NCBI GenBank assembly: GCA_002414865.1
Contig: DIAQ01000095.1
Location: forward strand, 21,430 to 85,429
DNA: 64,000 bases
Source: a candidate division Hyd24-12 bacterium UBA5074
GTDB lineage: Bacteria; Fermentibacterota; Fermentibacteria; Fermentibacterales; Fermentibacteraceae
Reading direction: 5' to 3'
Positions 2,134 to 56,780 of the stretch are shown here, piece by piece. How positions within the stretch are numbered: position 1 is the first letter of the stretch; each line of letters starts with the position of its first letter. Below the pieces are notes generated by a model that saw nothing but the letters and a program-made list of their open reading frames with translations, was not told the DNA's origin and searched no databases. A program made the position numbers and the translations under genes.

Positions 2134-2196
2134 ACCGCAGGCCGGCTGGCATCCGTCAAGGTGCCGGTTAATTCTGAACGGAGGGTTGCAGTACAG

Positions 2197-16248: not shown

Positions 16249-16290
16249 ATGTCCTTCCTGAATGTTGCAGGGAAGGTTGTTTATACCCAA

Positions 16291-28439: not shown

Positions 28440-28801
28440 TGACCTCCCTGGTTCCTGTTGTTCTGACTGACGCCGTCGGCCGAGGCGCAGGAATCGTCGC
28501 CGACAGGGATCACATCCAGCACGAATTCGCTGAGTCCCCTGATCTTGACGGTCATGCCGTCCTGGAGCCGGGAGCTGCTCCTGCACCACCAGAGCTCGCC
28601 CCTGACCTCGACCACCCAGCGGTTGCGGAACCCGGGGCGACGGCTGATGACTCCGGTCAGCCCTATCATGCCCTCGTTCCCCGTCTGCACGGGGAGGTGC
28701 TGCGCCTTGAAGCCCAGCCATGCCAGGAACAGGGCGAAGGCTCCGCCGGCGATGCCTGCCGGGAGCCAGAAGCCCTCCGGAAGCGTGTACATGATGATCA
28801 C
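28436..28801 (-). CDS. NfeD-like membrane protein (short form), the operon partner of the SPFH protein.
   Basis: Two N-terminal TM helices plus a C-terminal OB-like domain [39 protein letters not shown] overlap with the SPFH start. Confidence 0.75.
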
Positions 28802-41716: not shown

Positions 41717-41725
41717 CAGGACTCC

Positions 41726-41760: not shown

Positions 41761-41766
41761 GATTTC

Positions 41767-42756
41767 ATGCTGTTTCCGCTGATCGTCGCGCTCTGCTCGC
41801 TGGCTGCCGGGGGCTGCGGGGGCGGCTCCCGGCTCCTGCCGTGGAGACAGCCATCCCTCGACGGCCTGGCCGCAGGGATATTGTCGGCGCGGACGATCCC
41901 CGAGTCGCCAGGGCTCCTCGTGATGGCCGCTTCGTGCGGATGGCCCGGCTCCATCGAGCTCGTCTCAACCGGCTCCCTGGAGGAACTCGAGGCACAGCTC
42001 GAAGCCTCTCCCGAGGGAACCTGCTGGGGCTCCTCCGGCGACGACTCCCTGGTCGTCCTGGTCACAGCCCCCTTCCCGGATGTGGTGCCCGAGGGGCTCG
42101 ACCTGGTGATCCCCCGCCACGGGTCGGCATCCTTCTCCCTCCTCCCTGCCGGTGGCTGCGACAGGGTTCTGGCCTCGTACCCTTCCGGCGAGGTGGTGGA
42201 ACTCGTCCCGGACTCTGCGGGCGTCCTCCACTTCCAGGCGAGGGAGCAGGGCCTCTCCTGGATCGAGGCGGTCAGAGACGGGCCCGAAGGCCCGGAGGTC
42301 GTCCTGCTGCTCCCGGTCTGCGCCGGGATCAGCGCATCCAGGGCTCTGGAGACAGGGCTCGCCCCCGGGATGGACACGCTCGAGGACATCCTCTCGGACA
42401 TCGGCGAGAGAAGGGGCCGAAGGCATCTGCAGCCTCTCGTGCGCACGGACCCGCTGGACAGTCTGGCCCTTGCAAGGGCCCGTGAGGTGGCCGAGTCCGG
42501 AGTGGTCAGCCATGCCGGTCTGCTGAGGCGGGAGGCTCCCGTCGACGGCCTCACGAGGGCGGAGAACATCGCCCGTGGAGGGAGCCTTGCCGAGGCCCAC
42601 GCGATGATCATGGCAAGCCCCATCCACCTGGCGGCATGCCTCGATCCTGAATACGGACAGGTGGGCATCGGCTCGGCCGTCCAGATAGGGCGTTACGGCT
42701 GGCAGATAGTCGTCGTGGAAATCTTCCTGGGAGCGGCGCATGATCGGTGTCCGTAG
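41767..42756 (+). CDS. Lipoprotein with a C-terminal CAP/SCP (PR-1/YkwD-like) domain.
   Basis: Lipobox MLFPLIVALCSLAAGGCGGGS (the ORF track starts at GTG 41692). C-terminal GLTRAENIARGGSLAEAHAMIMASPIHLAACLDPEYGQVGIGSAVQIGRYGWQIVVVEIF resembles the CAP domain. Confidence 0.65.
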   Translation: MLFPLIVALCSLAAGGCGGGSRLLPWRQPSLDGLAAGILSARTIPESPGLLVMAASCGWPGSIELVSTGSLEELEAQLEASPEGTCWGSSGDDSLVVLVTAPFPDVVPEGLDLVIPRHGSASFSLLPAGGCDRVLASYPSGEVVELVPDSAGVLHFQAREQGLSWIEAVRDGPEGPEVVLLLPVCAGISASRALETGLAPGMDTLEDILSDIGERRGRRHLQPLVRTDPLDSLALARAREVAESGVVSHAGLLRREAPVDGLTRAENIARGGSLAEAHAMIMASPIHLAACLDPEYGQVGIGSAVQIGRYGWQIVVVEIFLGAAHDRCP

Positions 42757-44371
42757 CGTGGCCCACGCCTCCGCGGCCGCTCTCCTGACGGTGGCGGGCG
42801 TCCTGCTGGTGGCTTCCTGCAAGAGCCCGGGCGCCGCCGCCGTCCTCTGCGCGTCGGCGCTGCTGGCCGGGGAGCTCCCCCTCAGGAATGACAGGGCCGT
42901 GCGGCTGACCCTCGCACCGGTGCCACTCGCGGCACTCGCCGGCGTCGCAGGGCCCCTGGAGGGCATGGCCGCAGGCATGCTCTTCCTGTCGGCTGGAGTT
43001 CTGCTCAGGGGCTTTCCAGGGAACACCGGATCCGGCTCTGCCAGAGCCGTCCTGTCCGTGATCGTGCCCTGCCTCCTCGCGGCTTCCCAGTCGGCGATGC
43101 ATCTCGGGGCCGGGCCCGGTCTCTCGGCTGCGGTCGCGTTCGTCCTCCTGGTGGCCGGATCTGGGATGCTGGACGCCATCCGGGGCGGGCGCCGCGCATG
43201 GGCCGGGTCGCTCCTGTGGATCCCGGCGGGGGTGCTGATGGCTCCTCTGCTCTACCTGACATGGCTGGGCGTCTCGCAGGCCGGCACGACAGGGGCCGCG
43301 CTGCTCTCCCTGCCGCTGTTCGCCTTCGCGGGCCTGTCCTCGTGGAGGCGGCGCAGCCTCGACCTCTACGAGAGGAAGACCTCCGAGCTCGCGGCCCAGA
43401 ACGCTCTCTCGGCAGAGCTCGCCTCCTCGAAATCCACGACCGAGTTCCTGGACACGGCAGGCAGGTACCTCTCGCCCGGCTCCAGATCGTTCGTGGTTCT
43501 CCTCACGAGACAGGCGGGGGGCGGGAGCGGCTGGGTGGGCTGGTCCAGTGCGGAGCAGAGGGCCTCGAACGCCTTCCCCGCCCAGGGCGGACCGCCGGGC
43601 TGGAACGAGATCAGGACCGGAGTCAGGCTCCAGGGGAGGTCCGGAGCGCTGATCGGACTTTCCCCGTCCAGGGACATGGCCCTGTTCGTGGACGGAGGCG
43701 CAGCCACCCGGCTGGAGGCCATGGAGCCCGACATAAGGGGTAACTTCGTCTCGCTCGTGAACCACGCATGGCAGGCGGTGGGACACTCCCTCACCATAGA
43801 CAGCGCCTTCATCGCGGCCGCGATGATACTCGCCCGGCTGGCCGATTCCAAGGACGACTACACGCATGGCCACTCGATCCGGGTCGCACGCCTCAGCTAC
43901 ATGCTGGGCGCTCGGATAGGCCTGTCCGTCCAGAAGCTCAAGACCCTCCGGGTGGGCGCGCTCCTGCACGACCTCGGGAAGGTCGCGGTCCCGGCGGAGA
44001 TACTGACCAAGCGCGGCCTTCTGACCAGGGAGGAGAGGACCGTCATCGAACGGCACCCCGTCGAGGGCGCCGAGATACTCGGCTCGCTCAGGGGGTATGA
44101 CGAGGTGAGGGAGATCGTCGGCAGCCACCACGAGAGGCTCGATGGCAAGGGATATCCGTCGGGGCTCTCCGGAAGGGGCATCCCGTTCCTGGCTCGGGTG
44201 GTCGCCGTTGCAGACACCTTCGATGCGATCACCTCCAGCAGGTCCTATCGCGCCGACGCAGACAGGCAGACGGCTCTGGAGGCGATCCGCGCAGGCAGCG
44301 GCACTCAGTTCGACTCGCGGGTCGTGGCCGCTCTCGAGAAGATGCTGGAGGACGGCGATGAAACCATCTGA
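42740..44371 (+). CDS. Membrane-bound HD-GYP domain protein (putative c-di-GMP phosphodiesterase).
   Basis: About 6 N-terminal TM helices. HD-GYP motifs HGHSIRVA, LHDLGKV, HHERLDGKGYPSGL. Confidence 0.85.
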   Translation: MIGVRSVAHASAAALLTVAGVLLVASCKSPGAAAVLCASALLAGELPLRNDRAVRLTLAPVPLAALAGVAGPLEGMAAGMLFLSAGVLLRGFPGNTGSGSARAVLSVIVPCLLAASQSAMHLGAGPGLSAAVAFVLLVAGSGMLDAIRGGRRAWAGSLLWIPAGVLMAPLLYLTWLGVSQAGTTGAALLSLPLFAFAGLSSWRRRSLDLYERKTSELAAQNALSAELASSKSTTEFLDTAGRYLSPGSRSFVVLLTRQAGGGSGWVGWSSAEQRASNAFPAQGGPPGWNEIRTGVRLQGRSGALIGLSPSRDMALFVDGGAATRLEAMEPDIRGNFVSLVNHAWQAVGHSLTIDSAFIAAAMILARLADSKDDYTHGHSIRVARLSYMLGARIGLSVQKLKTLRVGALLHDLGKVAVPAEILTKRGLLTREERTVIERHPVEGAEILGSLRGYDEVREIVGSHHERLDGKGYPSGLSGRGIPFLARVVAVADTFDAITSSRSYRADADRQTALEAIRAGSGTQFDSRVVAALEKMLEDGDETI

Positions 44372-45929
44372 ACCCGCCCGCACAGGCCCCGCGGCCTTCC
44401 AGCTCCTCGTCTGGATCCTCGCGGCGGTCTCCGTGCCGGACTCCCCGGCCCCCTCCTCCTCCATCGAGTCCCTGACACTGATGATCGCCACCTGGGTCGG
44501 CGTCCTGGGGGCCACCGCCTTCAGCTACCTCTCCTCCAGCGGCATCTCTGTGTCCCTCGTCACCTGCTTCCAGTGCCTGCTGGTGATGACGGGCTTCGAC
44601 AGGGCTTCCGAGGCCGCGTTCCTGATCGCCTGCTTCCTCGGGACGATGTCGTTCTCGGGGAGGATAGGGCTGGGGGCGCGTGACGGCGCCGGCCTCTCCC
44701 TGAGAGCGGCGCTCACCCAGTGGGCTGCTCTGAGGATCGCAGGATTCGTCTATGCGGTAACGATTCCGGCAGGCCTCTCCGGCACGCTTCCCGGAGCTGC
44801 AGCCTGCTCTGTCTTCGCAATCGTGCTGCTCCAGGCTTCAGCGCTGGTCCTTCGCTCGATCGGAGGGCGCGGGAGGCTGCTGAGGACGGAGTTCAGCTTC
44901 GCGAGGCTGATGCACGGAGTCGCTCTGCCGGTCTTCTTCATGCCTTTCCTTCTGCCGGCGGTGACCGGGGCGGTCGGACCGGGCGCGGCGCGCGGAGACG
45001 TCTCCCTCCTGCTCCCTGCCGGCGTGGCGTCGATGATCACCGTGCAGGTCGCCATGGCGCTCAGCCTGGAGAGGTCCAAATGGTCTCAGGGCAGGGCGCT
45101 CTCGCTGGAGAAGGCCATGGCCGCGCTCTCCCGCAGGCTGGTCTCCTCGAAGAACCCTGCGGCGGCGCTCCAGAGCCTGGCCGTGGAGCTGCAGGAGGCC
45201 ATCAGGTCGAGGGCCATCAGGGTCACCTGGGGCAACCTCTCGATGGCCCTGCCGTCGGGCTCCCCCCTGCCGCGGGGCAAGCCCCTGCGCCGGACGGGAA
45301 GGGCGGGCCTGCAGGCGGAGATATGGGCCGACCCGGCCACAGTGCTCGATCCTGCGCGGCTCGACGCCTTCGTCCTCCAGACGGAGGCCGCCCTTCAGAG
45401 CATCGAGCTGGGGAGCAGCATCAGCAGGGAGGCGTGGAACTGCATGGAGGCGATGGTGCAGTCCCTCGACCGCTCCGACCACCGGCTCGCAGGCCACAGC
45501 AAGCGCGTGGCCAGGCTGGCGACCGAGCTGGGCCGCCGGCTGAACCTCCAGCCGGGACTGCTGGACAGCCTCCGCATGTCCTCGCTCCTGCACCACGTGG
45601 CGCAGTTCGTCCTCACCTCACGCCCCTACGAGGACCTGCCGGATGCGGACAGCTCGCTCTCGCGCTTCGCGCTTCCCGGAGAGGCCATCGAGGGTCTCAC
45701 GAGGATGAGGGAGAACTTCGACGGTACCGGGCTGCCGGATGGCCTGGCGGGCAACATCATCCCGATTCAGGCCAGGATACTCTCGGTGTCCGACGAGTTC
45801 ATCACGGGCGTGGAGAGGATGGGCGGGGATGCGGCGATGACCGCCGTCTCGCAGCGTTCGGGCAGCCTGTACGACCCCGCCATAGTCCAGGTCCTCTCCG
45901 CCACCCTGGAGGACGGCTTCGAGGCCTGA
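44358..45929 (+). CDS. Membrane-bound HD-GYP-like protein with degenerate catalytic motifs (possibly non-catalytic).
   Basis: ATG at 44358 overlaps the 3' end of the upstream gene. About 8 TM helices. AGHSKRVARLATELG is retained, but HD becomes LHHVAQF and HHExxDGxGYP becomes RENFDGTGLPDG. Confidence 0.7.
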   Translation: MKPSEPARTGPAAFQLLVWILAAVSVPDSPAPSSSIESLTLMIATWVGVLGATAFSYLSSSGISVSLVTCFQCLLVMTGFDRASEAAFLIACFLGTMSFSGRIGLGARDGAGLSLRAALTQWAALRIAGFVYAVTIPAGLSGTLPGAAACSVFAIVLLQASALVLRSIGGRGRLLRTEFSFARLMHGVALPVFFMPFLLPAVTGAVGPGAARGDVSLLLPAGVASMITVQVAMALSLERSKWSQGRALSLEKAMAALSRRLVSSKNPAAALQSLAVELQEAIRSRAIRVTWGNLSMALPSGSPLPRGKPLRRTGRAGLQAEIWADPATVLDPARLDAFVLQTEAALQSIELGSSISREAWNCMEAMVQSLDRSDHRLAGHSKRVARLATELGRRLNLQPGLLDSLRMSSLLHHVAQFVLTSRPYEDLPDADSSLSRFALPGEAIEGLTRMRENFDGTGLPDGLAGNIIPIQARILSVSDEFITGVERMGGDAAMTAVSQRSGSLYDPAIVQVLSATLEDGFEA

Positions 45930-45949: not shown

Positions 45950-46534
45950 TCAGCGCAGGCCCAGATTGGGCGGTGAGACGCTCCCCTCCAGGCTGAAGCT
46001 GGCTTCTCCGGCCTCCGCCGTGATCGAGTAGCGTATCGTCCGGATCCTGTCCCTCCCGGCCTCGTCCGCCAGCACGACGCCATCCAGCGCGCGGCCGGAA
46101 TCGTCCAGGTACTCGAAGGAGATCGAAGTCGAGGCAGGCGCCTCGAACAGGACGGTCCCCGCTGCATCCTCCACGGTGATTCCGCCGCCGGGCGGGCTCG
46201 AGATCGAGATCCGGTCCTCCGGCCCGGAGTGACCCGGTTCCTCCGTGTCGTCGAGGAAGGAGACCTGCGAGGGGCCCGCGCAGGCGAATGGATGCCTCCC
46301 GGCTCCCGGGCGCGACGCGGCGTAGCCGGCGCGGCCCAGGGCTGCGGAGATCCTCTCCGCGGCCAGGCCCGCCTCGGCCGAGGCCCTCCCCGCGTCAGCA
46401 GCCCTCCGGGCCGCCTCCCTGCCGTTGAGATAGACGGCATAGAGGGCGCCCAGCAGGACGACGAGGACTGCGATCACCACGACAAGCTCGACGAGTGTGA
46501 ACCCCTGCCGGCGCGGCGGGATGCCGTCCGGCAT
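45950..46534 (-). CDS. Type IV pilin-like protein (pseudopilin); last gene of the operon.
   Basis: Class III signal MPDGIPPRRQG|FTLVELVVVIAVLVVLLGALYAV, with Phe at +1 and Glu at +5. Confidence 0.8.
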   Translation of the reverse strand: MPDGIPPRRQGFTLVELVVVIAVLVVLLGALYAVYLNGREAARRAADAGRASAEAGLAAERISAALGRAGYAASRPGAGRHPFACAGPSQVSFLDDTEEPGHSGPEDRISISSPPGGGITVEDAAGTVLFEAPASTSISFEYLDDSGRALDGVVLADEAGRDRIRTIRYSITAEAGEASFSLEGSVSPPNLGLR

Positions 46535-46553
46535 GCACCGGGGTGCGCGGGCG

Positions 46554-47978
46554 CTAGAAGATGTTGTCGTCTATCCTGCCGTCCCCGAAGTCGGGATCGA
46601 GCTGCCAGGAGATCATCTTCCAGGCTTCCAGGGTGGGGAATCCGGGAGGGTGGACGGAGGCGTATCCCTCGTCCCAGGCTATGGTCAGCTCGTAGCCGGA
46701 GAATCCCGTCTCGAGCGAGCCGAACCTCTCTTCCAGGAGCCCTCCGAGGACATTCAGGGAGAACCTCCCCCCTCCGGCCGAGGGATCTTCGGCCTCGAGG
46801 GAGCCGGACGGACAGGCGAGGTAGGCGCCTATCGAGAGGTGCCTGTCGGTCGTGATGTCCCAGGGGCGGGGCCAGTCGGGCGCGCCGGAAGCGTCCGGGT
46901 CGGCAGCCACGATGATGTCGCCGAGCGACACCAGCGCGAGCGGCGAGCCGGAGTAGGCGGATTGCGAGCTGATGGGCCCCATGACGACCAGGGGGCCGCC
47001 GACCACGATGGTCAGGGGCTGATCGACCGCGCCGAGCGACTTCATGTAGACGGGGGCGAACCCGCTCTGGATGTACACGATGCTCCTGCCGCCCAGCCCC
47101 AGCGTGTCCACCTGCATCCCGGGACCGGCGGAGTAGAGGAGGCGGCGCCCGTCCAGGAGGACCCTCCTGGCCCCCCGTATCAGCGACCCCTGCCGTGAGG
47201 CCTCCGCGGAGAGGGTCTCGAAGCAGGCGGTCAGCCTGGAGAAGCTTACGCTGTCGGCGGCTCCGTCCCAGTACGGCCTCCCCTGGAGCATCTGCGGATA
47301 GGGGCGGACCCAGGTTCTGCTGCCGGGGGGGTGGGGCAGGTCGCTCCTCCCGAAGTCATCGAAGAGGAAGCCGCCGCGGGCGGTTGTCGAGACCGATGCC
47401 ACCCACGGGTCGTCTGCGGAGTCCGGCGACTCGCTGGAGAAGCTGACAGGGCCGTTGGAGTGCACCGGGCCGGCCATGATGCAGCCGTCGTCCAGGAAGC
47501 CCGCAGGCACGCCTGCGTCGACCAGCAGCGAGTACCTGGAAGGATAGTCCGGCAACGCCCTCACCGAGACATCCCTCATGAGCCCGTTCGAGAGCCCCCT
47601 CGCCCTGATCTCCACCGAGCCGATCCGGCAAGGGAGGTAGTTCTGGTCCGAGGGATCGATCAGGACCCAGACGCTCTCTCCGGACGGGAGGGATATCCAC
47701 TGGGCGCTGTCTCCCGGGAGGGCGAAGGGCTCCCTGCCCCCCGGGACCGAGTCGGCCAGCGACAATGTGTGGAGGGCGAGGCTCACTCCGGCCTCGGCTG
47801 CGAACTGCGCCCTGGTCCTGTCGAGCTTGAATGCGAAGCTGGCCACGTTGCTCTGGAAGATCACGTAGACGGCGCCCGCCAGGATGAAGAGCACGAGCCC
47901 GAAGATCGCGGCCAGGGCGAGCACGGCGCCTGTCGCGCCGCGCCGCCCTGCCTCAAGGGGTCTAGAACCAGTGCTCAT
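46554..47978 (-). CDS. PilX/GspK-like large minor pilin (paralog 1).
   Basis: N-terminal RRG|ATGAVLALAAIFGLVLFILAGAVY, then QFAAEAGVSLAL (PilX_N-like). 474 aa. C-terminus DPDFGDGRIDDNIF is similar to the paralog. Confidence 0.7.
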   Translation of the reverse strand: MSTGSRPLEAGRRGATGAVLALAAIFGLVLFILAGAVYVIFQSNVASFAFKLDRTRAQFAAEAGVSLALHTLSLADSVPGGREPFALPGDSAQWISLPSGESVWVLIDPSDQNYLPCRIGSVEIRARGLSNGLMRDVSVRALPDYPSRYSLLVDAGVPAGFLDDGCIMAGPVHSNGPVSFSSESPDSADDPWVASVSTTARGGFLFDDFGRSDLPHPPGSRTWVRPYPQMLQGRPYWDGAADSVSFSRLTACFETLSAEASRQGSLIRGARRVLLDGRRLLYSAGPGMQVDTLGLGGRSIVYIQSGFAPVYMKSLGAVDQPLTIVVGGPLVVMGPISSQSAYSGSPLALVSLGDIIVAADPDASGAPDWPRPWDITTDRHLSIGAYLACPSGSLEAEDPSAGGGRFSLNVLGGLLEERFGSLETGFSGYELTIAWDEGYASVHPPGFPTLEAWKMISWQLDPDFGDGRIDDNIF

Positions 47979-49470
47979 CCACCGAGTCGAGGTCGAGGTC
48001 GGGCTTCTCCGCCCAGTACACCACGTCCCACCGGCCCGTCTGCGGGAAGAACGGCGGGTGCATGGAGAGCAGCCTGGGGTCGTAGTAGATCACGGTGTCG
48101 TAACCGGAGCTCGGGGTGGTGGTGTACCCCTCCGTGTTCACGATGTAACCGCCCATGACCATGAAGTCCACGGGGCCGGGCGGGACGTTCCAGTTCTCGG
48201 CGTTGAACGCGCCGTTGAGGTCCATCACCACCATGTCGTACTCGATGTCCGCATTCGTGACGATGCGCCAGACCGGGTCGGTCCAGTCGGTTCCCCCCAC
48301 GCTCTCCGGATCCACCGCGATGGTGAAGTTCCCGTAGACGATGATTATCCCCAGCATGGTGAAGTTGCCGGCGTCCTGCAGGTCGCGGTTCTGGTACTGC
48401 AGGGTGCCCGACACGAAGAGGCTCCCGTTGACTCCTATCGTCAGCGGCATGCTGAGTCCGTCCTGGCACCAGGGCGCGGTGCCGGTGACGTACGGCGGCA
48501 TGCTCTTCAGATAGACCCTCTGGGCGGCGCCGTTGTCGATCCAGACCACGGGATTTACCAGGTCGCCCAGATAGAAGCGCTGGACCGCGGCCGCGTTGCT
48601 CTCCTTCACGAGCAGCGTGTCGTTCCTCAGTATCATCCTGGTGCGGTCGTCGAGAGTGCCAGGACCGAAGTAGAGCCCTCCGGAGATGGCCGCGTTGCGG
48701 GCATCCCCCCAGTCGACCTCGCCGGGGCCGTATGCGATCGGGTCCACGTTCAGCTCGAAGTAGGGCGCACCCATGGACATCCTCTCCGGGGGCTGGATGG
48801 AGAGGTTGCCGTAGACCGGAGAGGTGCGGTACGGGGGAGCGGTGCCTCCGAAGCCGGTGCTGTACCAGTAGCCCGGTGACGCCAGGCTGAAGCGGTAGAA
48901 CCAGATGTCATTGGTGGTCGAAGCGTCGCTGCTGAAGAGGCAGACTCCTCCGTTCGCGAAGAAGGGTCCGTCGAACCTGTAGCCGTCGCCGTAGTAGCCG
49001 TTGGTGGGCGGCACGTTGAGGAAGGTGGCGAACCTGGCGAAGTTCTCGGGGACGACCACCGTCTCCATTCCGTAGTCGAAGGTTCCCTGCTGGGACTCCA
49101 CCCTTCCGAGGGCCCTCAGGCCGTAGGCGTCGCCCGCCCAGACCTCCGGGTTGTTGTTGCTGGGATCGACCCAGACCGTCACTTCGCCCAGGTCGTCCCC
49201 GGGCAGGTCCTCCCACCCTGTCGCGGGAGGCTCGGGCAGGAACTGCACCGGGAGCGTGTCGTAGGGTACCGAGGCGCCGCCCATGATCATGTCCACGGCC
49301 AGGTTGGCCCCGGCCTCGGCCGTGTACCTGGCCTGTATCCTGTCACGGTCCCAGGTGTAGCTCTTCATGTTGGCGTCGAACAGGGTGTACACGGCGGCCG
49401 CGAGGATGGAGAGGACGAGGGTGGCTATCACCACCATCGCGAGAGCCGCTCCTCTTCTGTCTGGCTTCAT
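47962..49470 (-). CDS. PilX/GspK-like large minor pilin (paralog 2).
   Basis: ATG at 49470 with GGAGGGGGA Shine-Dalgarno. N-terminal RRG|AALAMVVIATLVLSILAAAVY plus RYTAEAGANLAV. 502 aa. Confidence 0.7.
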   Translation of the reverse strand: MKPDRRGAALAMVVIATLVLSILAAAVYTLFDANMKSYTWDRDRIQARYTAEAGANLAVDMIMGGASVPYDTLPVQFLPEPPATGWEDLPGDDLGEVTVWVDPSNNNPEVWAGDAYGLRALGRVESQQGTFDYGMETVVVPENFARFATFLNVPPTNGYYGDGYRFDGPFFANGGVCLFSSDASTTNDIWFYRFSLASPGYWYSTGFGGTAPPYRTSPVYGNLSIQPPERMSMGAPYFELNVDPIAYGPGEVDWGDARNAAISGGLYFGPGTLDDRTRMILRNDTLLVKESNAAAVQRFYLGDLVNPVVWIDNGAAQRVYLKSMPPYVTGTAPWCQDGLSMPLTIGVNGSLFVSGTLQYQNRDLQDAGNFTMLGIIIVYGNFTIAVDPESVGGTDWTDPVWRIVTNADIEYDMVVMDLNGAFNAENWNVPPGPVDFMVMGGYIVNTEGYTTTPSSGYDTVIYYDPRLLSMHPPFFPQTGRWDVVYWAEKPDLDLDSVDEHWF

Positions 49471-49482
49471 CTTCTCCCCCTC

Positions 49483-52400
49483 CTAGTTGGGCACGGCGAA
49501 GAACTGGATGTTGTCGAGGTTCCAGCCGCCGCGCTCCATGAACGGGCCTGAGTACTGCAGGAACCTGATGAAGTAATAGGAGTAGCCTGCTCCCCAGGCC
49601 GCCGTGAACTCCGGCGTGAGATCGATCCACTCGTCATCCCAGTCGAGCTGGTTCTCGCCGCTGTACTGCCTCACCAGCTTCCAGGCGCTCGATACGGAAT
49701 CGGGGGGGGTGGTCGAGTTCGAGAACCCTATCGAGATGTAGGCGTCGTCGGTGGCCGAGAGCCTGACGCAGCGGTAGTACTCCACCGATACACTGTCGTA
49801 GAGGCTCTGGCTTGGCATCGTGTAGGCGGGCGAGACCAGCCATGCCCACTGGTTGGAGGGGTAGTACCCATCGACAGTCAGGTCGGTGCCCGCGACCGTC
49901 AGGCCGTTCTCGGGAGTGAGAGCCGGATCGACGCTGAGGACCAGAGGCGCCGCTATCTCCCAGTCGTCATCTCTGCCCCCGTGGGTCCACCAGCCGCCGG
50001 ACCCCGACGTGCCCAGCTCTGAGGCCAGATAGATCACCTCGAAGTCGTTGTAGAGATTGTAGTTGTTGAGAGGCACCGAGTCGTCGGGGGTGGTCCCGCT
50101 TATCTCGCCGAGGGCCCCTGTCGTGGACTGCACCCTGATGGCCGGCCTCCTGGCGTGGAGGGCCAGCACGGTCGGATCGGCGGTATCGCTGCCGGCCTGG
50201 CGGCACCTGACTGCGGAAGGCGCATCCTCGGTCATCCACGAGGTGTTGGCCGAAGTCCAGCCGGCGTCGTGCTGCTCCACCTTGATGCAGAGGTTCATCC
50301 CCGGCGGCAGCAGGAAGGTGTCGTCGAGGTTGAGGGTCTTCCAGCCCGTGGAGTTTACACCCAGGGTGCCCTCGTCCACGACCTGGGTCATCGTCGCCTT
50401 GTCGATCTCGCCGGCGCCCGCAAAGGTCGAGTCGGCGATCGCAGCCATGTAGACGTCATAGGTGAAGTTCCAGGGCGAAGGCACCGATGCCGCCTCGAAG
50501 TCGAGCGCGCTGATCTCGTAGCCGGTGGCCTGGCCGAACACGCGGAAGTTGTCGATGTGCCAGCCCACGTCCGCGGTGGTGGTGTTCGAGCCGAACACGA
50601 AGCGGAACCTGACGGTGTGCCCGGCGTACGAGTCGAGGTTCACGGTGTCCGTCCGCCAGGTCTGCAACCCGCAGAAGATGCGCATGCCCGCTCCGCCCGG
50701 GAAGCCCGCGAGGGAGTTGGCGCTGTAGACCAGGCCGGAGGCGTCGGTCAGCGTGACCCAGCCCCCTCCATCCACCGAGAGCTGGACGAATCCGCCGTCG
50801 TACTGGTTCTGCGTGTCCACATAGTGCGTGAACTGCATCTTGGGCGAGACCACCCAGGCGGGGATGGAGACGGTCGGCGTGGTCAGATAGCAGTAGGTGT
50901 TGTTCGCGTACTGCGTGCCGGAGGCCTGCTGCACCGTCCACGAGTATCCGTAGAGGGCGTCCACCTCCTTGGTGTTCCAGGTGTCGAGGTGCCCGGCGCT
51001 CATCGGCCCGTGGGACCAGCCCGAGAGGCCGAGGCCCGGCGTGAGCCTGCTTATCCTGAGGTCGTCCCACTGCATGCCGCCCGATGGGATCGGATTCCCG
51101 CCGAACTGGCTCAGGGACACGCGGTAGTTGGAGCCGAACGGGTAGGACGAGGCGAAGGCCGCATCATCGAGGTCGACGAAGACGGTCTCCCATCCGGCCG
51201 GGCCTGCGCCGGCGCCTATTCGCGTGTAGGTCGTGTCGGCCGTGACTACGATGTTGTCCAAGGAGATGCCGTCGTTGTTGTCCAGCGAGACGGCGGTGTT
51301 GTTGTTGTTCGAGCCGAACAGCACGTAGAGGTTCGCGGGCATGGTGACCGGGGTGAACCGGTAGCTGCGGTTGAACCAGCTGCTGTTGTTGTAGGAGGAA
51401 GGCGTGAGGTTCACGGGATCGGTCGGCGCGGCGGCGATGCCCACGCTGCTCCAGCCCACGAAGTCGCCCGTCGCTCCCGTGTTGTCGCCGTCGTTGTGGT
51501 CGTGGAACCTGTAGCTGACGGTCAGGGGCGTGTTGTTGGGAAGCCCGCCCGTGCTGAAGTAGACGGCCATCCGGTTGGCGACCCCCGCGCCGTTGGAGAC
51601 CCTGTCCAGGGTGATGAAATTGCCGTCGCCGAGCCATCCCGCGGGCGAATGCACTCTCCACTGGCCGTTGACAGGGATCTGCGTGGTGATGCCCGGAGGC
51701 AGGACCCCGGCCGTGGGGAACCCGGTGTGGAACAGAGTGTCGATGTCGGTGAAGAAAACGCCGTCCATCGCGTCCGGGGCTCCCTCGTAGCTGCGGCACT
51801 TCACGGAGAGGAGCAGCTCGTCGGTCATGTAGCTGAAGGGGCTCAGGTCGACCGTGACGGTGGCGATGTTCCTCGTGCCCGTCCCCGCCGTCGGGCGGTG
51901 CATCTGCAGGACGTCATCGGTCGTGTTGATGCCGCAGGACCCCATACCCAGGGCCGCGAAGGACCAGCTCAGGAGCGGGGCGTCGGTGAACGGCTCCCAG
52001 AACAGCACGGTGGTGTCAGTCACCGCCGTCGGGTTCACGTTCTCCTCCCACAGGTTGATCTCCTGCGAGCTGACCCCGGGGCCCTCGAAGTCCTCGAGCG
52101 TAGTCAGCTCGTCCCCGTGGTCGCCGGCCGTGGTGCCGCAGCTCCAGGCGATCGCATTGTAGAACAGGGGCCAGCCGCCCGACTCCGTGTACTCGCTTGC
52201 GTCGTAGGGGCTGAAGTGGATCCTGCGGAGCGCCTCGTCGTCCTCGTCGCGCACGATGATGGCGCAGTTGGCCACCGCCGTGCCTCCGATGCCGAGGTAC
52301 TCGGGGTTGGAGAGGGCGGGATCGGTGCCAAGGAGCATCGACTGCCTGCCGCTGGAGATCGGCGAATATGCGTAGATGGTGTCCGGCGTGATGTTCTTGA

Positions 52401-53367
52401 AGACGGGGTGGTCTATCGCATAGGCAGTCACGACAGGCTCCTGCGAGTCGTGCTCGCCGGTGCCCATCCCGAAGCACTCGTATGCGTCCTGCGCATCCAG
52501 CGTGACGATCGGGACTCCGGCGCCCTCCAGGAACGAGGCCATGCCGGAGTGGGAGCCGCTGTCCATGTGCCTGAGGACGATCACCATCACGTCGGTGTAG
52601 TCGTACGTGATCAGCTGGTCGTCGGTGAGCACGGTCACGGTGTAGCCCCAGAGCTGGAGCCTGTTGATCATCAGCTGCTGGTCTTCCGTGGGCTCGGGGA
52701 TCGCGCCGATGCCATCGACGTTGAAGACGATGATCCCGTCGAGGGGCGCGGGCGGGAAGAAGGCGGGATTGATGTTGTGGTTCACGCCCAGGTTCCGGGG
52801 CGAGACCGTGGTGTGGAGCACTGTCTGGTAGACGTCGCCCGCATAGGTGGCCGTGAGCTCGATGGTGATCTGGACGTGCCTGATGAGGTCGCGCCCGGCT
52901 TCGTCCAGCGGCATCACGAGCTCGTCGCCGTCCTCGTCGAAATAGAGGAAGCTCAGGTCGGTGACGTTCTCGCCGAACTGCTGAGTCTTCCCGGCGTTGT
53001 CCGTCACCGTTATCCGGTTGTTGAGCAGCATCACGTGGCGGTAGTCGGCATCGTCCAGAGTCCGGAAGGGCCGGAAGTCGGCGTAGAAGCCCAGGGAGTC
53101 GTTGTCGGCCTGCGTGACAGGGTGCCAGTCGTCGTTGTCCCAGCCGCCGTATGGCATGTAGCCGACCCAGATCACCTCGTTCGTGAGCCTGTCCAGGGCG
53201 AGCCTCCCCGCCACGTCCAGCTCGTTCTGGCGGCGGGCGAAGTTGAAGTGCTCGGTCCCCGACACGAACATCATGAACACCGCGGCCATGATCACGCCGA
53301 GAATGACGACGACGATCGTCACCTCGACGAGGCTCATGCCGCGCCTGCCCGAATCGCTGCTTCGCAT
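49483..53367 (-). CDS. Giant type IV prepilin-like protein (about 1295 aa) with a very large extracellular region containing lectin/jelly-roll-like segments.
   Basis: ATG at 53367 gives leader MRSSDSGRRG | MSLVEVTIVVVILGVIMAAVFMMF (Met at +1, Glu at +5). The rest is rich in W/Y/N/T/D, with motifs such as GWHIDNFRVF and WNLDNIQFF. The antisense 1080-aa ORF is rejected. Confidence 0.8.
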   Translation of the reverse strand: MRSSDSGRRGMSLVEVTIVVVILGVIMAAVFMMFVSGTEHFNFARRQNELDVAGRLALDRLTNEVIWVGYMPYGGWDNDDWHPVTQADNDSLGFYADFRPFRTLDDADYRHVMLLNNRITVTDNAGKTQQFGENVTDLSFLYFDEDGDELVMPLDEAGRDLIRHVQITIELTATYAGDVYQTVLHTTVSPRNLGVNHNINPAFFPPAPLDGIIVFNVDGIGAIPEPTEDQQLMINRLQLWGYTVTVLTDDQLITYDYTDVMVIVLRHMDSGSHSGMASFLEGAGVPIVTLDAQDAYECFGMGTGEHDSQEPVVTAYAIDHPVFKNITPDTIYAYSPISSGRQSMLLGTDPALSNPEYLGIGGTAVANCAIIVRDEDDEALRRIHFSPYDASEYTESGGWPLFYNAIAWSCGTTAGDHGDELTTLEDFEGPGVSSQEINLWEENVNPTAVTDTTVLFWEPFTDAPLLSWSFAALGMGSCGINTTDDVLQMHRPTAGTGTRNIATVTVDLSPFSYMTDELLLSVKCRSYEGAPDAMDGVFFTDIDTLFHTGFPTAGVLPPGITTQIPVNGQWRVHSPAGWLGDGNFITLDRVSNGAGVANRMAVYFSTGGLPNNTPLTVSYRFHDHNDGDNTGATGDFVGWSSVGIAAAPTDPVNLTPSSYNNSSWFNRSYRFTPVTMPANLYVLFGSNNNNTAVSLDNNDGISLDNIVVTADTTYTRIGAGAGPAGWETVFVDLDDAAFASSYPFGSNYRVSLSQFGGNPIPSGGMQWDDLRISRLTPGLGLSGWSHGPMSAGHLDTWNTKEVDALYGYSWTVQQASGTQYANNTYCYLTTPTVSIPAWVVSPKMQFTHYVDTQNQYDGGFVQLSVDGGGWVTLTDASGLVYSANSLAGFPGGAGMRIFCGLQTWRTDTVNLDSYAGHTVRFRFVFGSNTTTADVGWHIDNFRVFGQATGYEISALDFEAASVPSPWNFTYDVYMAAIADSTFAGAGEIDKATMTQVVDEGTLGVNSTGWKTLNLDDTFLLPPGMNLCIKVEQHDAGWTSANTSWMTEDAPSAVRCRQAGSDTADPTVLALHARRPAIRVQSTTGALGEISGTTPDDSVPLNNYNLYNDFEVIYLASELGTSGSGGWWTHGGRDDDWEIAAPLVLSVDPALTPENGLTVAGTDLTVDGYYPSNQWAWLVSPAYTMPSQSLYDSVSVEYYRCVRLSATDDAYISIGFSNSTTPPDSVSSAWKLVRQYSGENQLDWDDEWIDLTPEFTAAWGAGYSYYFIRFLQYSGPFMERGGWNLDNIQFFAVPN

Positions 53368-53380
53368 GTCCACCACCCGC

Positions 53381-53758
53381 CTAGAGAATCGTGCTGAGCG
53401 TCAGGGTGTCCGGACCCTGGGCGCCATCCCAGACAACCATGCTCTGCACGAGCCGGGCCTCGGACAGAGTCGAATACGGAGTGCTGATAAGCATGTACCT
53501 GGAGAACTTCTCGAATGTGACCGGGCCCGTGGTGCCGTCGGGCATGGTGGAGATGTCGAGGGTCCTGATCTCCTCGAGGCCCTGCCGGCTCAGCTCGAGC
53601 GCCCTGGTGCGATCGTCCATCACATCGGACTGCTTGATGATGTACCCGAAGAAGAAGCCTATCCCGATGATCAGGATCGCCAGCAGCACGCTTGCCAGAA
53701 GGACCTCCACGAGGGTGAACCCGCCGTTCCTGGTGCGCCTTCCCCCCACTGCGATCAC
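53381..53758 (-). CDS. Small pseudopilin (GspI/PilV-like).
   Basis: Leader RTRNGG|FTLVEVLLASVLLAILIIGIGFF (Phe at +1, Glu at +5). 125 aa. GTG start at 53758. Confidence 0.75.
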   Translation of the reverse strand: MIAVGGRRTRNGGFTLVEVLLASVLLAILIIGIGFFFGYIIKQSDVMDDRTRALELSRQGLEEIRTLDISTMPDGTTGPVTFEKFSRYMLISTPYSTLSEARLVQSMVVWDGAQGPDTLTLSTIL

Positions 53759-53768
53759 ATCCCTTCTC

Positions 53769-54119
53769 CTATTGGTAGAACTTGCGCTCGAGATCCACGA
53801 GTCCCCCCGGGGGAGACGATACCGACACTTCGAGAACGATCACCCCGCCGGGCTCCTCGCGCGCCTCGGTGCGCACGGAGTAGCTTCCTCCCGCCGCGCG
53901 GACCACGGTGTTCCTGGCGCCGAAGGGCCGGGGAGGCGGGCCTGCACCCCAGGAGGCCATCTCGTCGGAAGCCAGCGCGAGCGCTGTGCGCCGCGAGGCA
54001 ACGAGCCTCTGGCCTCTCAGGAACGTGCCCGTCGCCAGGCACAGGGCCGCAAGGACGACGAGGGTGATGCCCGAGGCCATGAAGGTCTCCGCGAGCGAAT
54101 AGCCGCGCCTGGGAATCAT
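53769..54119 (-). CDS. Small pseudopilin (GspH/FimT-like).
   Basis: ATG at 54119 overlaps the upstream TGA stop (ATGA). Leader MIPRRG|YSLAETFMASGITLVVLAALCLATG, with Glu at +5. Confidence 0.75.
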   Translation of the reverse strand: MIPRRGYSLAETFMASGITLVVLAALCLATGTFLRGQRLVASRRTALALASDEMASWGAGPPPRPFGARNTVVRAAGGSYSVRTEAREEPGGVIVLEVSVSSPPGGLVDLERKFYQ

Positions 54120-55546
54120 CCCTCGATCCACTCCATCTCCTCGGGTCTCAGGGCTCCGTCGGCTCCCCGGCGCATGGCGACCTCCAGGCGGCGTGAGAGA
54201 ACGACGCGCCCGTCTCTGGTGCTGACCGCGCTCCAGACCTGTGTCAGGTCCGGGCCGGCGGCGGGATTCAGCGAGAGGGAGAGGCCTTCCTCCTCTGCGA
54301 CGAGGGCGTCATCGCCCCCTCCGTCGATGTCGGTCCAGGAGATCACCTGTCCGCCGATGTCCGTGACCGAGCCTGTAAGGGGATCGAGCAGGGCCAGGCT
54401 TCCGCCGAGCATCCCGGCCAGGCCGCCTGCGCCGGAGACGATCCTGCCGCTCCAGTTCCGCAGGAGGGGGCCGAACGACAGACAATCCTGGAACCCGCCC
54501 CATGCGAGCCGCCTCCATGCGGAGGAGCCATCCGGGGCATCCCACCTCACGCCGAGGCCGCCGGTCTGCGGCAGCACTCCCCAGGCGCCCGGGGAGCGCC
54601 CGGGCAGCCTGTCGGAGAACAGGATCCCGGTGGAGGAAAAGAGTGCGGCGGCCGAGGAGTCCGATATCCAGACCATGTCCTCCCGGCCGTCGGAATCGAT
54701 ATCGACCCTCAGGACGTCGACGATCTCGCCATGGCGCAGCGCCGGGTCCTCCACGAAGTCGCCGCCGGGCCATACCCCCCCTGCGAGCACCGCCGGGCAG
54801 GACCCAGGAGGCGAGGGCACGAGCGTCACCGATCCCTCCTCGAGGTCGACCAGCGCCCCGCGGCCTTCCGAGGCGAGAAGGACGCATGCATGTCCGCCGA
54901 CACTGTCGAGGGAGGCCAGCGTGCCCGGGACCAGAGGGAACGGAACCCCTCCGACGGAGATCGCTCGATCGGGCGGCTCCATGCCATAGACGCTGCAGCC
55001 GAGCCTGTCGCCCACGGCAACGGCGAAGAGCGGGCCACCTTCGGCCGGCTGCCCCCGCCATCCCGCGAGGAGGAAAGTCCCCTGACCGCAGGGTATGCGG
55101 AATGACCCGGTCGAAGGCGGGGAAGGCATTCCGGCGAGCGGAAGGACTCTCACGAAGAGCGTGTCCGAGGATCTCTCCGCGACCGAGACACCCGGGAACG
55201 CCGGAGCTGCGGCCCCGTCGGCTGCAATGCCGAGCCTCACGAGCCCGGGAGGCGACTGGACCTCCGACAGCTGCTCGAGCGAGGTCACCACCCCTCCGAC
55301 CTCCACCTCGACGGGCCCTTCCGAGACGCCCGTGCCGGCCAGGAGGCGCTCCAGCCTGTCAGCCGCGCTCTCCTGCGAGAGACGCGCCTGCGCCAGGAGC
55401 TCCAGTTCCTGCTGATCGTCCAGCATGGAGCGGAGATATCCGAAGAGAAGGGCGGCGGAAAGCAGGACCACCGAGGAGGCCGTCAGCGCGATCACCAGGG
55501 CGGCGCCCCTCTGTCTTCCTGTGAGCAACCTGGAATTCATGGTCAT
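54116..55546 (-). CDS. PilX/GspK-like large minor pilin with FG-GAP/VCBS-like repeats; first gene of the operon.
   Basis: Leader MTMNSRLLTGRQRG|AALVIALTASSVVLLSAALLFGYL. Repeats VDIDSDGREDMVWISD and WTDIDGGGDDALV (DxDxDG). Confidence 0.7.
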   Translation of the reverse strand: MTMNSRLLTGRQRGAALVIALTASSVVLLSAALLFGYLRSMLDDQQELELLAQARLSQESAADRLERLLAGTGVSEGPVEVEVGGVVTSLEQLSEVQSPPGLVRLGIAADGAAAPAFPGVSVAERSSDTLFVRVLPLAGMPSPPSTGSFRIPCGQGTFLLAGWRGQPAEGGPLFAVAVGDRLGCSVYGMEPPDRAISVGGVPFPLVPGTLASLDSVGGHACVLLASEGRGALVDLEEGSVTLVPSPPGSCPAVLAGGVWPGGDFVEDPALRHGEIVDVLRVDIDSDGREDMVWISDSSAAALFSSTGILFSDRLPGRSPGAWGVLPQTGGLGVRWDAPDGSSAWRRLAWGGFQDCLSFGPLLRNWSGRIVSGAGGLAGMLGGSLALLDPLTGSVTDIGGQVISWTDIDGGGDDALVAEEEGLSLSLNPAAGPDLTQVWSAVSTRDGRVVLSRRLEVAMRRGADGALRPEEMEWIEG

Positions 55547-55706
55547 GCAGAAACAGAAAGCAAGAAACTTGCCGCAATATTAGACCATACTATCACGCAA
55601 ATTAGATGTTAAATTATTCTAATTGTGCATGTCCCTGCACAGAGCATGAACGGCCGCTGCATACAGGGGAGATTCCGGGGCATCCCTAGGGATCGGATGA
55701 CGCACC
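55547..55706 (-). promoter_or_regulatory. AT-rich intergenic control region upstream of the pseudopilin operon. It contains two palindromes and a putative extended -10.
   Basis: About 35-40% GC over 55560-55630, against about 68% for the window. Perfect 12-bp palindrome ATCCCTAGGGAT at 55682-55693. Inverted repeat TGTGCA-N6-TGCACA at 55624-55641. On the minus strand, TGATAGTAT precedes the operon start at 55546. Confidence 0.4.
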
Positions 55707-56780
55707 TTAGGCGCCCGGCTTCAGCCTGAACATCCTCCCGGGGAGCTGCTCGACCACTCCCGCCATCTCGAGCTCGAGGAGCCGCGCGAGCAGCTCGGGG
55801 GCAGGGCGCGACAGCCCCCTCACGAGCTCGTCGAGATGGACTGGGCCTTCGCAGAGGGAGGTGGCGATCTCCTTCAGGATGCCCTCCAGCCGGGCGGCGG
55901 GCGCCTCCCGGGACGAACTCCTCCTCTGCAGTCCGATCGCGTCGAGCACGTCCGAGGCCGATGTGACGACGCCCGCACCCTCCTTCAGGAGGCGGTTCGT
56001 GCCCCGCGAGCCCCCTCTCAGTATCTCGCCCGGCACCGCGAGGACGTCCCTGCCCTGCGCAAGGGCTGCGTCGACCGTGATCATCGTCCCGCTCCTGTCG
56101 CCGGCCTCGACCACGACCACCGCGCTGGAGAAGCCGCTGATGAGCCTGTTCCTCCTGGGGAAGTTCCAGGCGTCGGGCTCCGTGCCCGGGGGGAACTCGC
56201 TGACGAGGCAGCCGCGAGCCTGGATTTCCGCGGCCAGCCGCACATGCTCCCGGGGGTAGATGATGTCTATGCCAGAGCCCAGCACCGCGAGAGTGGATCC
56301 CCCCGCCTCGAGGCAGCCTCTGTGGGCTTCTGCATCGATGCCCCTCGCGAGTCCGCTCACGACGCCCACCCCTTCGGCGGCGAGCTCCCTCGACAGCATC
56401 CGGGCCACTCCGAGCCCGTAGGGGGATGCCCTGCGGCTTCCGATGACCGCCACGGCCGGCCGCTCGAGGAAGCCGGTCATGTCTCCCAGCCAGAACAGGG
56501 CTGCGGGCGGATCGGGGATGTCGCGGAGGACCGCCGGGTAGCCCGGCGAGGACAACCAGGTGCCGCCAGCTCCGGATGACTGCAGGTAATCGATCGCATA
56601 TCCGAGTTTTTCGGGATCGGGCGCTCCCGATGGATGCGAGACCCTGAGCCTCTCCACCGCTTCAGGGGGATCGCAGGCCAGCAGGAGGGATCTCAGGAAG
56701 GCGGCGCCGGCTCCGCTCCAGCTGCAGGCTTCGACGAGGCTTCCGAGGCCGCCGTGCGCGCCTGCTTCACTCTTTCCCAC
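55707..56780 (-). CDS. dprA: DNA-processing protein DprA (Smf).
   Basis: Rossmann-like core RPAVAVIGSRRASPYG...VVSGLARGIDAEAHRG...RNRLISGFSSAVVVVEAGDRSGTMITVDAAL. The start is uncertain: the ORF begins with GTG at 56780 and overlaps obg by 88 nt, and an alternative GTG exists at 56657. Confidence 0.8.
   Translation of the reverse strand: MGKSEAGAHGGLGSLVEACSWSGAGAAFLRSLLLACDPPEAVERLRVSHPSGAPDPEKLGYAIDYLQSSGAGGTWLSSPGYPAVLRDIPDPPAALFWLGDMTGFLERPAVAVIGSRRASPYGLGVARMLSRELAAEGVGVVSGLARGIDAEAHRGCLEAGGSTLAVLGSGIDIIYPREHVRLAAEIQARGCLVSEFPPGTEPDAWNFPRRNRLISGFSSAVVVVEAGDRSGTMITVDAALAQGRDVLAVPGEILRGGSRGTNRLLKEGAGVVTSASDVLDAIGLQRRSSSREAPAARLEGILKEIATSLCEGPVHLDELVRGLSRPAPELLARLLELEMAGVVEQLPGRMFRLKPGA

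Follow-up and report, generated by a model that had tools for sequence, protein, structure and literature searches.

New functions of type IV filaments are believed to arise when modules are grafted onto their minor pilins or onto PilY1. How far such grafting can go, and on which subunit, is the question raised by a locus of the candidate division Hyd24-12 bacterium UBA5074 (Fermentibacterota), in which seven consecutive genes encode pilin-like proteins, one of them 1297 amino acids (aa) long. The locus lies on contig DIAQ01000095.1 of assembly GCA_002414865.1, and we analysed the 64,000 nucleotides (nt) that contain it (positions 21,430 to 85,429 of the forward strand), hereafter the window. 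Our results indicate that this is probably the operon for the core minor pilins of the type IV pilus in Fermentibacterota, that is, the genes for its initiation/tip complex, in which the giant protein, g4, would act as an adhesive arm at the tip. This reading follows from the gene order, since two small pilins of the I/H class (g2 and g3) precede a J-type pilin (g4) and a K-type pilin (g5), as in gspH-I-J-K. The synteny of pilI-J-K has been described as almost invariant across type IV pili as well as type II secretion systems (T2SS) (PMC13533445).

The cluster comprises seven consecutive open reading frames (ORFs) on the minus strand, named g1 to g7 in the order of transcription, which run from 55546 down to 45950 and encode proteins of 476, 120, 125, 1297, 502, 474 and 194 aa. 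In a genome of 67% GC, the GC content at third codon positions (GC3, 0.82-0.92) greatly exceeds that at second positions (GC2, 0.44-0.57) in all seven ORFs, which are therefore genuine coding frames. Adjacent genes overlap or are separated by short gaps (-17 to +19 nt), and thus g1 to g7 form one operon. A first-pass annotation of the window, made by a model from the sequence, had listed seven minus-strand genes with these positions and sizes, and the coding-type GC3 bears it out. The frame of the giant gene, whose integrity was critical to that annotation, is intact: some 40 orthologues, 1284-1332 aa long, can be aligned with 99-100% of g4.

The start of g4 is more likely the ATG three codons inside the listed ORF, which gives the leader MRSSDSGRRG, as first annotated. 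In agreement with a prepilin identity, the curated cutoffs of the N_methyl model (PF07963, 21.2 bits) and of TIGR02532 are passed by g3, g4 and g7 (scores in Table 1); in g4 itself, N_methyl is the only Pfam domain above threshold. We predicted the structure of g4 with AlphaFold2 (AF2) in two pieces from family alignments, residues 1-440 and 431-1297, for which the predicted local distance difference test (pLDDT) was 87.5 and 86.9, respectively. The model of the first piece contains the pilin fold, a long N-terminal helix (residues 16-68) on antiparallel beta-sheet, with pLDDT above 90 over most of residues 20-200, and solved pilins match it. The sheets are arranged as in the two-sheet J-type fold. 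The top structural match is the Thermus competence-locus pilin TTHA1219, and several of the closest solved structures are the T2SS pseudopilins XcpW, EpsJ and GspJ; an independent Foldseek search also retrieved XcpW and EpsJ. The model thus assigns this module a J-type core minor pilin fold and not a major-pilin fold. The first-pass annotation had credited the giant with a canonical major-pilin N-terminus: g4 is indeed a genuine prepilin, but its module is predicted to be that of a J-type minor pilin and its gene occupies the J position of the I-J-K order. One copy of g4 per filament, at the tip, is expected.

After a short linker (residues 202-208) of low confidence, the model of g4 continues into an alpha/beta domain and then into an all-beta array. 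A catalytic glutamine amidotransferase reading of the alpha/beta domain was rejected because it lacks a conserved Cys or His. The array (residues 431-1297) is predicted to fold into about six sandwiches, whose Foldseek neighbours include reelin repeats, the MAM domains of meprin, PTPmu and scavenger receptor C, the carbohydrate-binding module (CBM) CBM22, an adhesin domain of gingipain (K2) and InhA; among the MAM matches are 8yt7 (TMt 0.61) and meprin 7uab. Structure prediction and Foldseek hence agree on the jelly-roll/MAM-like domains that had been suspected in g4. Choice-of-anchor J/InhA-like MAM regions of M36-peptidase models match residues 796-949. A MAM-type sequence model with a cutoff of 26.9 bits gives 15.7 bits for g4 and 34.9 bits for its orthologue P0037, and PF20773 is precomputed on many g4 relatives. 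A profile of the C-terminal part, compared by sequence with the PDB, matched only pilin N-terminal helices. BLAST of g4 against itself revealed no internal sequence repeats, for which the sandwiches are too diverged.

Within the array, conservation is highest in the last domain (residues 1111-1297). Short-form relatives of 787-853 aa keep the first 430 residues of g4, the MAM-like unit at aa 810-946 and aa 1115-1297; since they keep two sandwiches, the long form has about three extra ones. The number of domains varies between lineages, with the pilin-proximal 430 aa and the distal domain kept. Such a variable domain number is typical of modular adhesins. Composed of a pilin module, a short linker and non-pilin modules, g4 is a modular pilin in the accepted sense (PMC8179133). 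Because its C-terminal folds are of adhesion or carbohydrate-binding type, and by analogy both with modular pilins such as PilB and PilC of S. sanguinis, for which a location at the tip has been argued (PMC8179133), and with the cyanobacterial solenoid-bearing PilX proteins proposed as substitutes for PilY1 (bioRxiv 10.64898/2026.02.12.705559), the extension of about 1,100 residues would most plausibly be a tip-presented adhesive arm. An adhesin presented on a type IV filament, as the first-pass annotation had it, remains the best reading of g4, since it is a genuine prepilin with lectin-like beta-sandwiches. In public databases, proteins related to g4 (P0039, P0044, P0017) are labelled 'immune inhibitor A', 'type II secretion system GspH family protein', 'pseudopilin PulG' or 'hypothetical protein'. 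The present reading corrects these inconsistent names ('hypothetical', 'GspH family', 'immune inhibitor A') of the g4 family.

Class III (prepilin) signal peptides had been attributed to all seven proteins of the cluster. We found canonical signals in four of them (g2, g3, g4 and g7), while the N-termini of g1, g5 and g6 are of the GspK/PilX_N type (RGAAL..., without Glu5). The family profile of g2 matches the globular domain of T2SS GspI/XcpV in the PDB (5bw0_B, E 0.004; 5vtm_V, E 0.014). The most conserved gene of the cluster is g3, with 40-71% tblastn identity to the window protein across loci, and its product belongs to the GspH/I/PilV class. The three short pilins had been called GspG/H/I-like at first pass; one of them, g7, is instead a paralogue of the pilin module of the giant (29% identity to residues 1-200 of g4, E 8e-19).

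Likewise, the three large proteins first described as PilX-like are not equivalent. The paralogues g5 and g6 are similar over their full length (28% identity, E 9e-44) and belong to a family characterized by PilX_N and DUF4900. Against the PilX_N cutoff of 25.5 bits, g5 falls slightly short and g6 gives no match; distant members of the family pass it (P0259, 30.5 bits; P0235, 26.1 bits). G6 is nearly invariant. The profile of the g5/g6 family matched 1932 representative proteins in a library of 1.84 billion; sampled members, Gemmatimonadales and Deinococcus proteins included, carry PilX_N and/or DUF4900. When compared with the PDB, a broadened profile retrieved one solved protein, Thermus ComZ (6qvi_A, E 1.7e-4, 23.9 bits), and did not match GspK itself; a narrower profile, and a Deinococcus DUF4900 protein on its own, found no PDB relatives. 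As for g1, its similarity to g5 is limited to the N-terminal 60 residues. The rest of g1 carries FG-GAP/VCBS-type motifs (aa 281-306 and ~405-412), and its orthologues, only 24-36% identical, conserve the D-x-D-x-DG motifs. The FG-GAP/VCBS-like repeats announced for g1 score below the Pfam threshold, but FG-GAP_3 is found in four of five orthologues and the g1 profile matches the repeats of PDB 8w20 (E 3e-6) and CRTAC1. No Pfam or NCBIfam match to the PilY1/PilC beta-propeller domain was obtained in any of the seven proteins.

The resemblance of the g4 module to XcpW, EpsJ and GspJ, the proximity of g2 to GspI and the GspK-type N-termini without Glu5 would also suit the minor-pseudopilin set (GspH-I-J-K) of a T2SS-like system, in which the giant would contact or push substrates and no surface pilus would be built. 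We consider such a system quite improbable. The genes gspC-G, L, M and D are absent from the 64-kb window, whereas T2SS genes are usually clustered, and the top structural match of the g4 module is a Thermus type IV pilus protein. In addition, T2SS pseudopilins have nothing comparable to an adhesin-like extension of 1,100 aa, and a PilT retraction ATPase of the type IVa pilus (T4aP) family is encoded in the window. This bona fide pilT gene lies 16 kb from the operon.

A scan of species-representative genomes showed that the operon is conserved in 57 species-level loci, and all those with a taxonomic name are Candidatus Fermentibacterota (Hyd24-12), the named homologues coming from Fermentibacter daniensis, Aegiribacteria and Sabulitectum. 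The group was recovered from many different environmental metagenome assemblies. According to a synteny table based on tblastn over 62 loci, g1, g3, g4, g5 and g6 occur at every locus whose contig extends far enough, g2 is found less frequently, and g7 is restricted to part of the long-form loci. Apparent second clusters (L055, L057, L058 and L062) were rejected as contig continuations carrying g7. All related loci retain the order small pilins, g4, K-type pilins. Two contexts can be distinguished. In type A, that of the window, obg and dprA precede the cluster, and two convergent HD_5 genes come after it here and in about a dozen related loci. Type B, mostly of the short form (Aegiribacteria), has no dprA and shows an HD_5 pair, an unknown gene, a radical SAM gene, a shikimate dehydrogenase gene and a further radical SAM gene before the cluster. 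The nearest relative of g4 is only 54-55% identical. A protein 100% identical to g1 (P0186) is encoded on a 12 kb JGI/Logan contig and a fragment (P0084) is 99% identical to g5, so this organism has also been sampled elsewhere. No exact match to g4 was found in the contig index, and the g4 of that organism was apparently never assembled or called intact.

This conservation bears on a further alternative, in which the N-terminal helices are membrane anchors only and g4 is a periplasmic or envelope protein, for instance a polysaccharide-binding scaffold, outside any filament. For a pilin, g4 is extremely large, no machinery genes lie nearby, and cyanobacteria are known to have pilin-like proteins that carry accessory domains and play regulatory roles (bioRxiv 10.64898/2026.02.12.705559). 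Nevertheless, 90% or more of the g4 homologues keep the Gly-1/Glu+5 signature, which is also conserved in g2, g3 and g7, and a complete collinear I-J-K set co-conserved across the phylum is hard to explain without filament initiation. These data make a filament-free role very improbable.

In Thermus, ComZ (TTHA1220) is encoded after the GspI-like TTHA1218 and the GspJ-like TTHA1219 (PMC5131608, PMC6561018); this GspK-like tip pilin, into which a beta-solenoid is inserted, binds DNA and its neighbour, the GspI-like PilA2 (PMC6561018). The operon could hence encode the tip set of a competence (DNA-uptake) pilus like Thermus pilA1-3/comZ, in which g5 and g6 bind DNA and act together with DprA. 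Besides the remote ComZ match and the rank of TTHA1219 as best structural match of the g4 module, this possibility is favoured by dprA, which immediately precedes the operon on its strand, here as in 27 related loci, and the Thermus counterparts are needed for transformation and not for piliation (PMC5131608). However, dprA is not adjacent in 14 loci of the short-form lineage with enough flank, the operon has a putative promoter of its own, and the MAM/CBM-like arm suggests that glycans or proteins are bound, rather than DNA. That the operon serves primarily for competence is unlikely, even though such a role is compatible with the adhesive minor-pilin operon that we favour. We also advance, rather speculatively, that a PilY1-type adhesin has been dispensed with and its roles shared out within the core tip complex, one operon providing two alternative tips: an adhesive tip of g4 and g5 for attachment to polysaccharides or partner cells, and a compact, ComZ-like tip of g7 and g6 for dprA-linked DNA uptake.

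The gap between dprA and g1 is 160 nt long, its core (55575-55630) is the lowest-GC stretch of the window (27% GC), and the AT-rich region contains one perfect dyad, in line with the AT-rich palindromic control region noted at first pass. This dyad, TGTGCAGGGACATGCACA, is the sole perfect match to its pattern in the window, and it stands upstream of a sigma-54 (RpoN)-type -24/-12 element, CGGCAAGTTTCTTGCT. Enhancer-dependent sigma-54 promoters normally have this layout of a -24/-12 element with an upstream dyad. The present element matches TGGCAC-N5-TTGCW at 9 of 11 positions, and the strict pattern GGYAM-N5-TTGC occurs once in the window. In related loci, searched from -300 to +160 nt around the estimated start of g1, 46 of 47 carry a match of at least 8/11 and 31 one of at least 10/11, usually as the sole such site when both strands of ~20 kb are considered; GGCA and CTTGC do not vary in the alignment. 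The best dyad upstream of the element, in 43 loci, is a 10/10 match in 19 and a 9/10 match in 13; in random windows, 9/10 was reached in 1% and 10/10 never. Its distances cluster at ~68, 78, 89, 99 and 109 nt, that is, in helical phase, and the dyad often occurs in two copies, 21 nt apart. A terminator-like hairpin (55573..55559) was rejected, because the hairpin is not conserved across loci and the GG/GC spacing is; so was a sigma-54 element on another GG (tatGGtct...), which has the wrong spacing and lies 14 nt upstream of the one retained. The sole sigma-70-like match (55612..55584), within the AT-rich spacer, is not above chance. From these conserved motifs, the control region appears to be a sigma-54-type promoter with an upstream dyad. 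Elsewhere in the window (37613-38098, minus strand), an HU/IHF-type DNA-binding domain is fused to a CBM48/AMPK glycogen-binding module, an unusual pairing; an IHF-like protein would be relevant to a sigma-54 promoter.

Altogether, the following mechanism can be proposed. An enhancer-binding-type regulator would act on the dyad, ~70-110 bp upstream, to have the operon transcribed from the sigma-54 promoter, as the conserved motifs suggest. By homology and fold, the proteins would be inserted into the inner membrane by their class III signal peptides and then trimmed by a prepilin peptidase. An I-J-K-type tip complex would be formed by g2 and g3 (GspI/H class), a J subunit (g4 or g7) and a K-type, ComZ-like cap (g5 or g6). 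The ~1,100 residues grafted onto the pilin module of g4, predicted as a ThuA/class I glutamine amidotransferase (GATase1)-like domain followed by about six MAM/CBM-like beta-sandwiches, would make a single arm of ~140 kDa per filament, carried out through the secretin at the tip. There, the arm may attach to a ligand, a glycan or a polymer of the cell surface being the most plausible, on which PilT-driven retraction would pull, and it would take the adhesin role that PilY1/PilC have in proteobacterial pili. Genes for the major pilin and for the assembly motor would lie elsewhere in the genome.

Several points weigh against this proposal. The entire window holds no further prepilin gene, hence no major pilin, and no gene for an assembly ATPase, platform, alignment-complex protein, secretin or prepilin peptidase. 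The first-pass annotation had stated that pilB, pilC, pilM-Q and gsp core genes are absent near the operon; none lies anywhere in the 64 kb, and a cognate assembly machine for the g1-g7 pilins is assumed. That a multi-domain arm of 140 kDa can pass through a secretin is likewise assumed, on the analogy of PilY1. The assignment of g4 and g7 as J-type rests on predicted structure and gene order, as sequence models such as TIGR01711 (gspJ) gave no match for g4 and, for g3 and g7, only weak ones limited to the N-terminal helix. Matches of the g3 profile in the PDB are also confined to this helix, so that H and I are not separable. The ComZ link is a single profile match of 23.9 bits over the N-terminal 125 positions, which suggests a remote relationship. 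A glycan or protein as the ligand of the arm is suggested by the fold families. Regarding the promoter, neither rpoN nor an activator gene was found among the window ORFs scanned, and the -12 element ends ~13 nt before the ATG of g1, where there is no Shine-Dalgarno sequence. The implied 5' untranslated region of g1, ~3-10 nt, would be oddly short and the mRNA nearly leaderless; several relatives show a similarly close promoter-ATG spacing. On the other hand, the first Hyd24-12 genomes were reported to contain genes for type IV pili (PMC5030696). A literature search on the pilus machinery of Fermentibacterota yielded nothing useful.

It had also been proposed that the operon is flanked by two HD-GYP genes and controlled by cyclic di-GMP (c-di-GMP). 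We found that both HD_5 genes lie downstream, on one side, convergent with the operon, and that dprA lies upstream. The first (42740-44371) encodes a canonical HD-GYP protein (LHDLGK, HHERLDGKGYP). The product of the second (~44350-45929) is degenerate (LHHV, FDGTGLP; HH/GLP for HD/GYP), has a long hydrophobic N-terminal region and, judging from these motifs, may act in sensing or as a receptor, not as an enzyme. In many loci the pair is not next to the cluster: its position changes between lineages, and several type A loci with a comparable downstream flank have no HD_5 match. Moreover, an Rfam search upstream of g1 detected no riboswitch, including the c-di-GMP type. A c-di-GMP link to the operon is therefore possible but unsupported. 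An ORF of 354 aa (41692-42756, plus strand) without Pfam or NCBIfam match accompanies the HD-GYP pair in most loci that have it, in both synteny arrangements. At the far end of the window there is a GGDEF diguanylate cyclase gene (1083-2360, minus strand), which together with the HD-GYP genes indicates that c-di-GMP signalling exists in this organism.

Table 1. Features of the operon, its control region and its context (window positions; a slash marks the prepilin cleavage site).
Feature	Position	Strand	Evidence or remark
dprA (DNA-processing protein A), context	55707..56780	-	Directly upstream, same strand; Pfam DNA_processg_A 247 bits
Upstream activator-type dyad TGTGCAGGGACATGCACA (TGTGM-N8-KCACA)	55624..55641	-	67 nt upstream of -24
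AT-rich spacer, dyad to promoter	55575..55623	-	Possible DNA-bending/IHF-type site
Putative sigma-54 (RpoN)-type -24/-12 element CGGCAAGTTTCTTGCT (GG-N10-GC)	55559..55574	-	Just upstream of g1 ATG
g1, 476 aa, PilX_N-like N-terminal anchor and fast-evolving body	54116..55546	-	FG-GAP/VCBS-type Ca-binding motifs
g2, 120 aa, small prepilin (G/YSLAE), GspI-like	53769..54131	-	Orthologues RGFTLVE; family profile matches GspI
g3, 125 aa, small prepilin (G/FTLVE), GspH/I/PilV class	53381..53758	-	N_methyl 27.8 bits; weak GspI, PilV, XpsI matches
g4, 1297 aa	49483..53376	-	N_methyl 24.4 bits; predicted structure in two pieces
g4 residues 1-200, class III leader (MRSSDSGRRG/MSLVE) and predicted J-type (GspJ/PilW-like) pilin module	52777..53376	-	
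g4 residues 211-415, ThuA-like/class I glutamine-amidotransferase-like alpha/beta domain	52132..52746	-	Probably non-catalytic
g4 residues 431-1297, about six predicted beta-sandwich modules (MAM/CBM/reelin-B-like jelly-roll)	49486..52086	-	
g5, 502 aa, K-type (GspK/PilX/ComZ-like) tip pilin	47962..49470	-	PilX_N + DUF4900 family; PilX_N 23.6 bits
g6, 474 aa, second K-type tip pilin	46554..47978	-	Paralogue of g5, full-length similarity
g7, 194 aa, prepilin (G/FTLVE), second J-type pilin	45950..46534	-	N_methyl 34.0 bits; paralogue of g4 pilin module
Two HD_5 genes, context	42740..45929	+	Convergent with operon; Pfam HD_5 135.5 and 55.8 bits
PilT/PilU-family type IVa pilus retraction ATPase, context	28798..29973	-	TIGR01420 423.7 bits (cutoff 319.1)

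Other features of the window are listed here for completeness. In a single ORF (38210-39706, minus strand), a HydE-like radical SAM maturase, which scores 238 bits with TIGR03956, slightly below the cutoff, is fused to a C-terminal shikimate kinase domain; in the related locus L005, radical SAM and shikimate kinase are two genes on opposite strands. Two ORFs of 549 aa (14638-16290, minus strand) and 340 aa (23008-24033, minus strand) show coding-type GC3 and no Pfam match, and their neighbours are housekeeping genes (mfd, PpiC-type rotamases, tyrosyl/tryptophanyl-tRNA synthetase). A class A bacterial RNase P RNA (63644-64000, minus strand, 228 bits) is truncated by the end of the window.

How the locus compares with known systems can now be assessed. 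It is collinear with Thermus pilA1-pilA2-pilA3-comZ (TTHA1217-1220) in the order of a small GspH/I-like, a GspJ-like and a ~500-aa K-type protein, and ComZ is the only sequence relative of the g5/g6 profile in the PDB. Unlike in Thermus, the J protein carries some 1,100 additional residues (TTHA1219 has 236 aa), the K gene is duplicated (g5, g6), an extra J-type gene (g7) and the FG-GAP-bearing g1 are present, and no major pilin gene follows the cluster. With T2SS GspH-I-J-K/XcpU-V-W-X the locus shares the two-sheet J-type fold predicted for g4, the GspI-like g2, the K N-termini without Glu5 and the I-J-K order. It differs in the lack of core genes, in having no sequence-level membership of the GspJ and GspK models, in K-type proteins that are DUF4900/ComZ-like and without the alpha-domain of GspK, and in the giant adhesin-like extension on J. 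The expected roles in priming and tip adhesion, and a PilT-type retraction ATPase in the genome, recall FimU-PilVWX-PilY1 and PilHIJK-PilC of T4aP. There, however, the adhesin is a separate non-pilin protein that docks on PilX/K (PMC13533445), whereas no PilY1/PilC homologue is encoded in the cluster, as judged by Pfam, and the adhesin moiety would be fused in cis to the J pilin.

The N-terminal pilin module, the short linker, some lectin-like or carbohydrate-binding-like modules and the predicted tip location are shared with modular pilins such as PilB (vWA) and PilC (lectin) of S. sanguinis and CofB. In the 2021 survey of such proteins, the 'most extreme case' had 860 residues (PMC8179133); g4 has 1297, with about seven extra domains, and its carrier is a J-type core minor pilin. 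In our view, a survey based on InterPro could under-detect the g4 family, because only N_methyl passes in Pfam and the InhA-like MAM is found on part of the family. In cyanobacteria, large solenoid-bearing K-type pilins, PilX(Com) and PilX(EPS, HpsA), have been proposed to replace PilY1 (bioRxiv 10.64898/2026.02.12.705559), and more than one J/K set per genome may prime distinct filaments. There the expansion concerns K (PilX), with two sets at separate loci, while here both J and K pairs lie in one operon and the biggest expansion is on J. Control of pilA by sigma-54 and PilR-type regulators in Pseudomonas, Myxococcus and Geobacter involves a -24/-12 element and an upstream dyad-symmetric activator site. 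The putative promoter described here shows the same layout ahead of pilin genes but drives a minor-pilin operon, and its dyad, TGTGM-N8-KCACA, matches no PilR or NtrC site known to us. Modular pilins and large tip pilins are therefore already known; new are the size of the pilin, the expansion on J, the duplication of J and K in one operon, the phylum-wide conservation and the sigma-54/dyad module.

The locus thus represents an extreme case of module grafting that is conserved across a whole phylum, and it is the J subunit of the universal I-J-K initiation complex that bears the graft, rather than K or PilY1. To our knowledge, g4 is among the largest pilins documented. The sigma-54/dyad module provides a handle for finding the regulon and its regulator. 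Fermentibacterota have been reported to be abundant in some anaerobic digesters (PMC5030696), and g4 offers a concrete candidate for surface adhesion in these uncultured bacteria.

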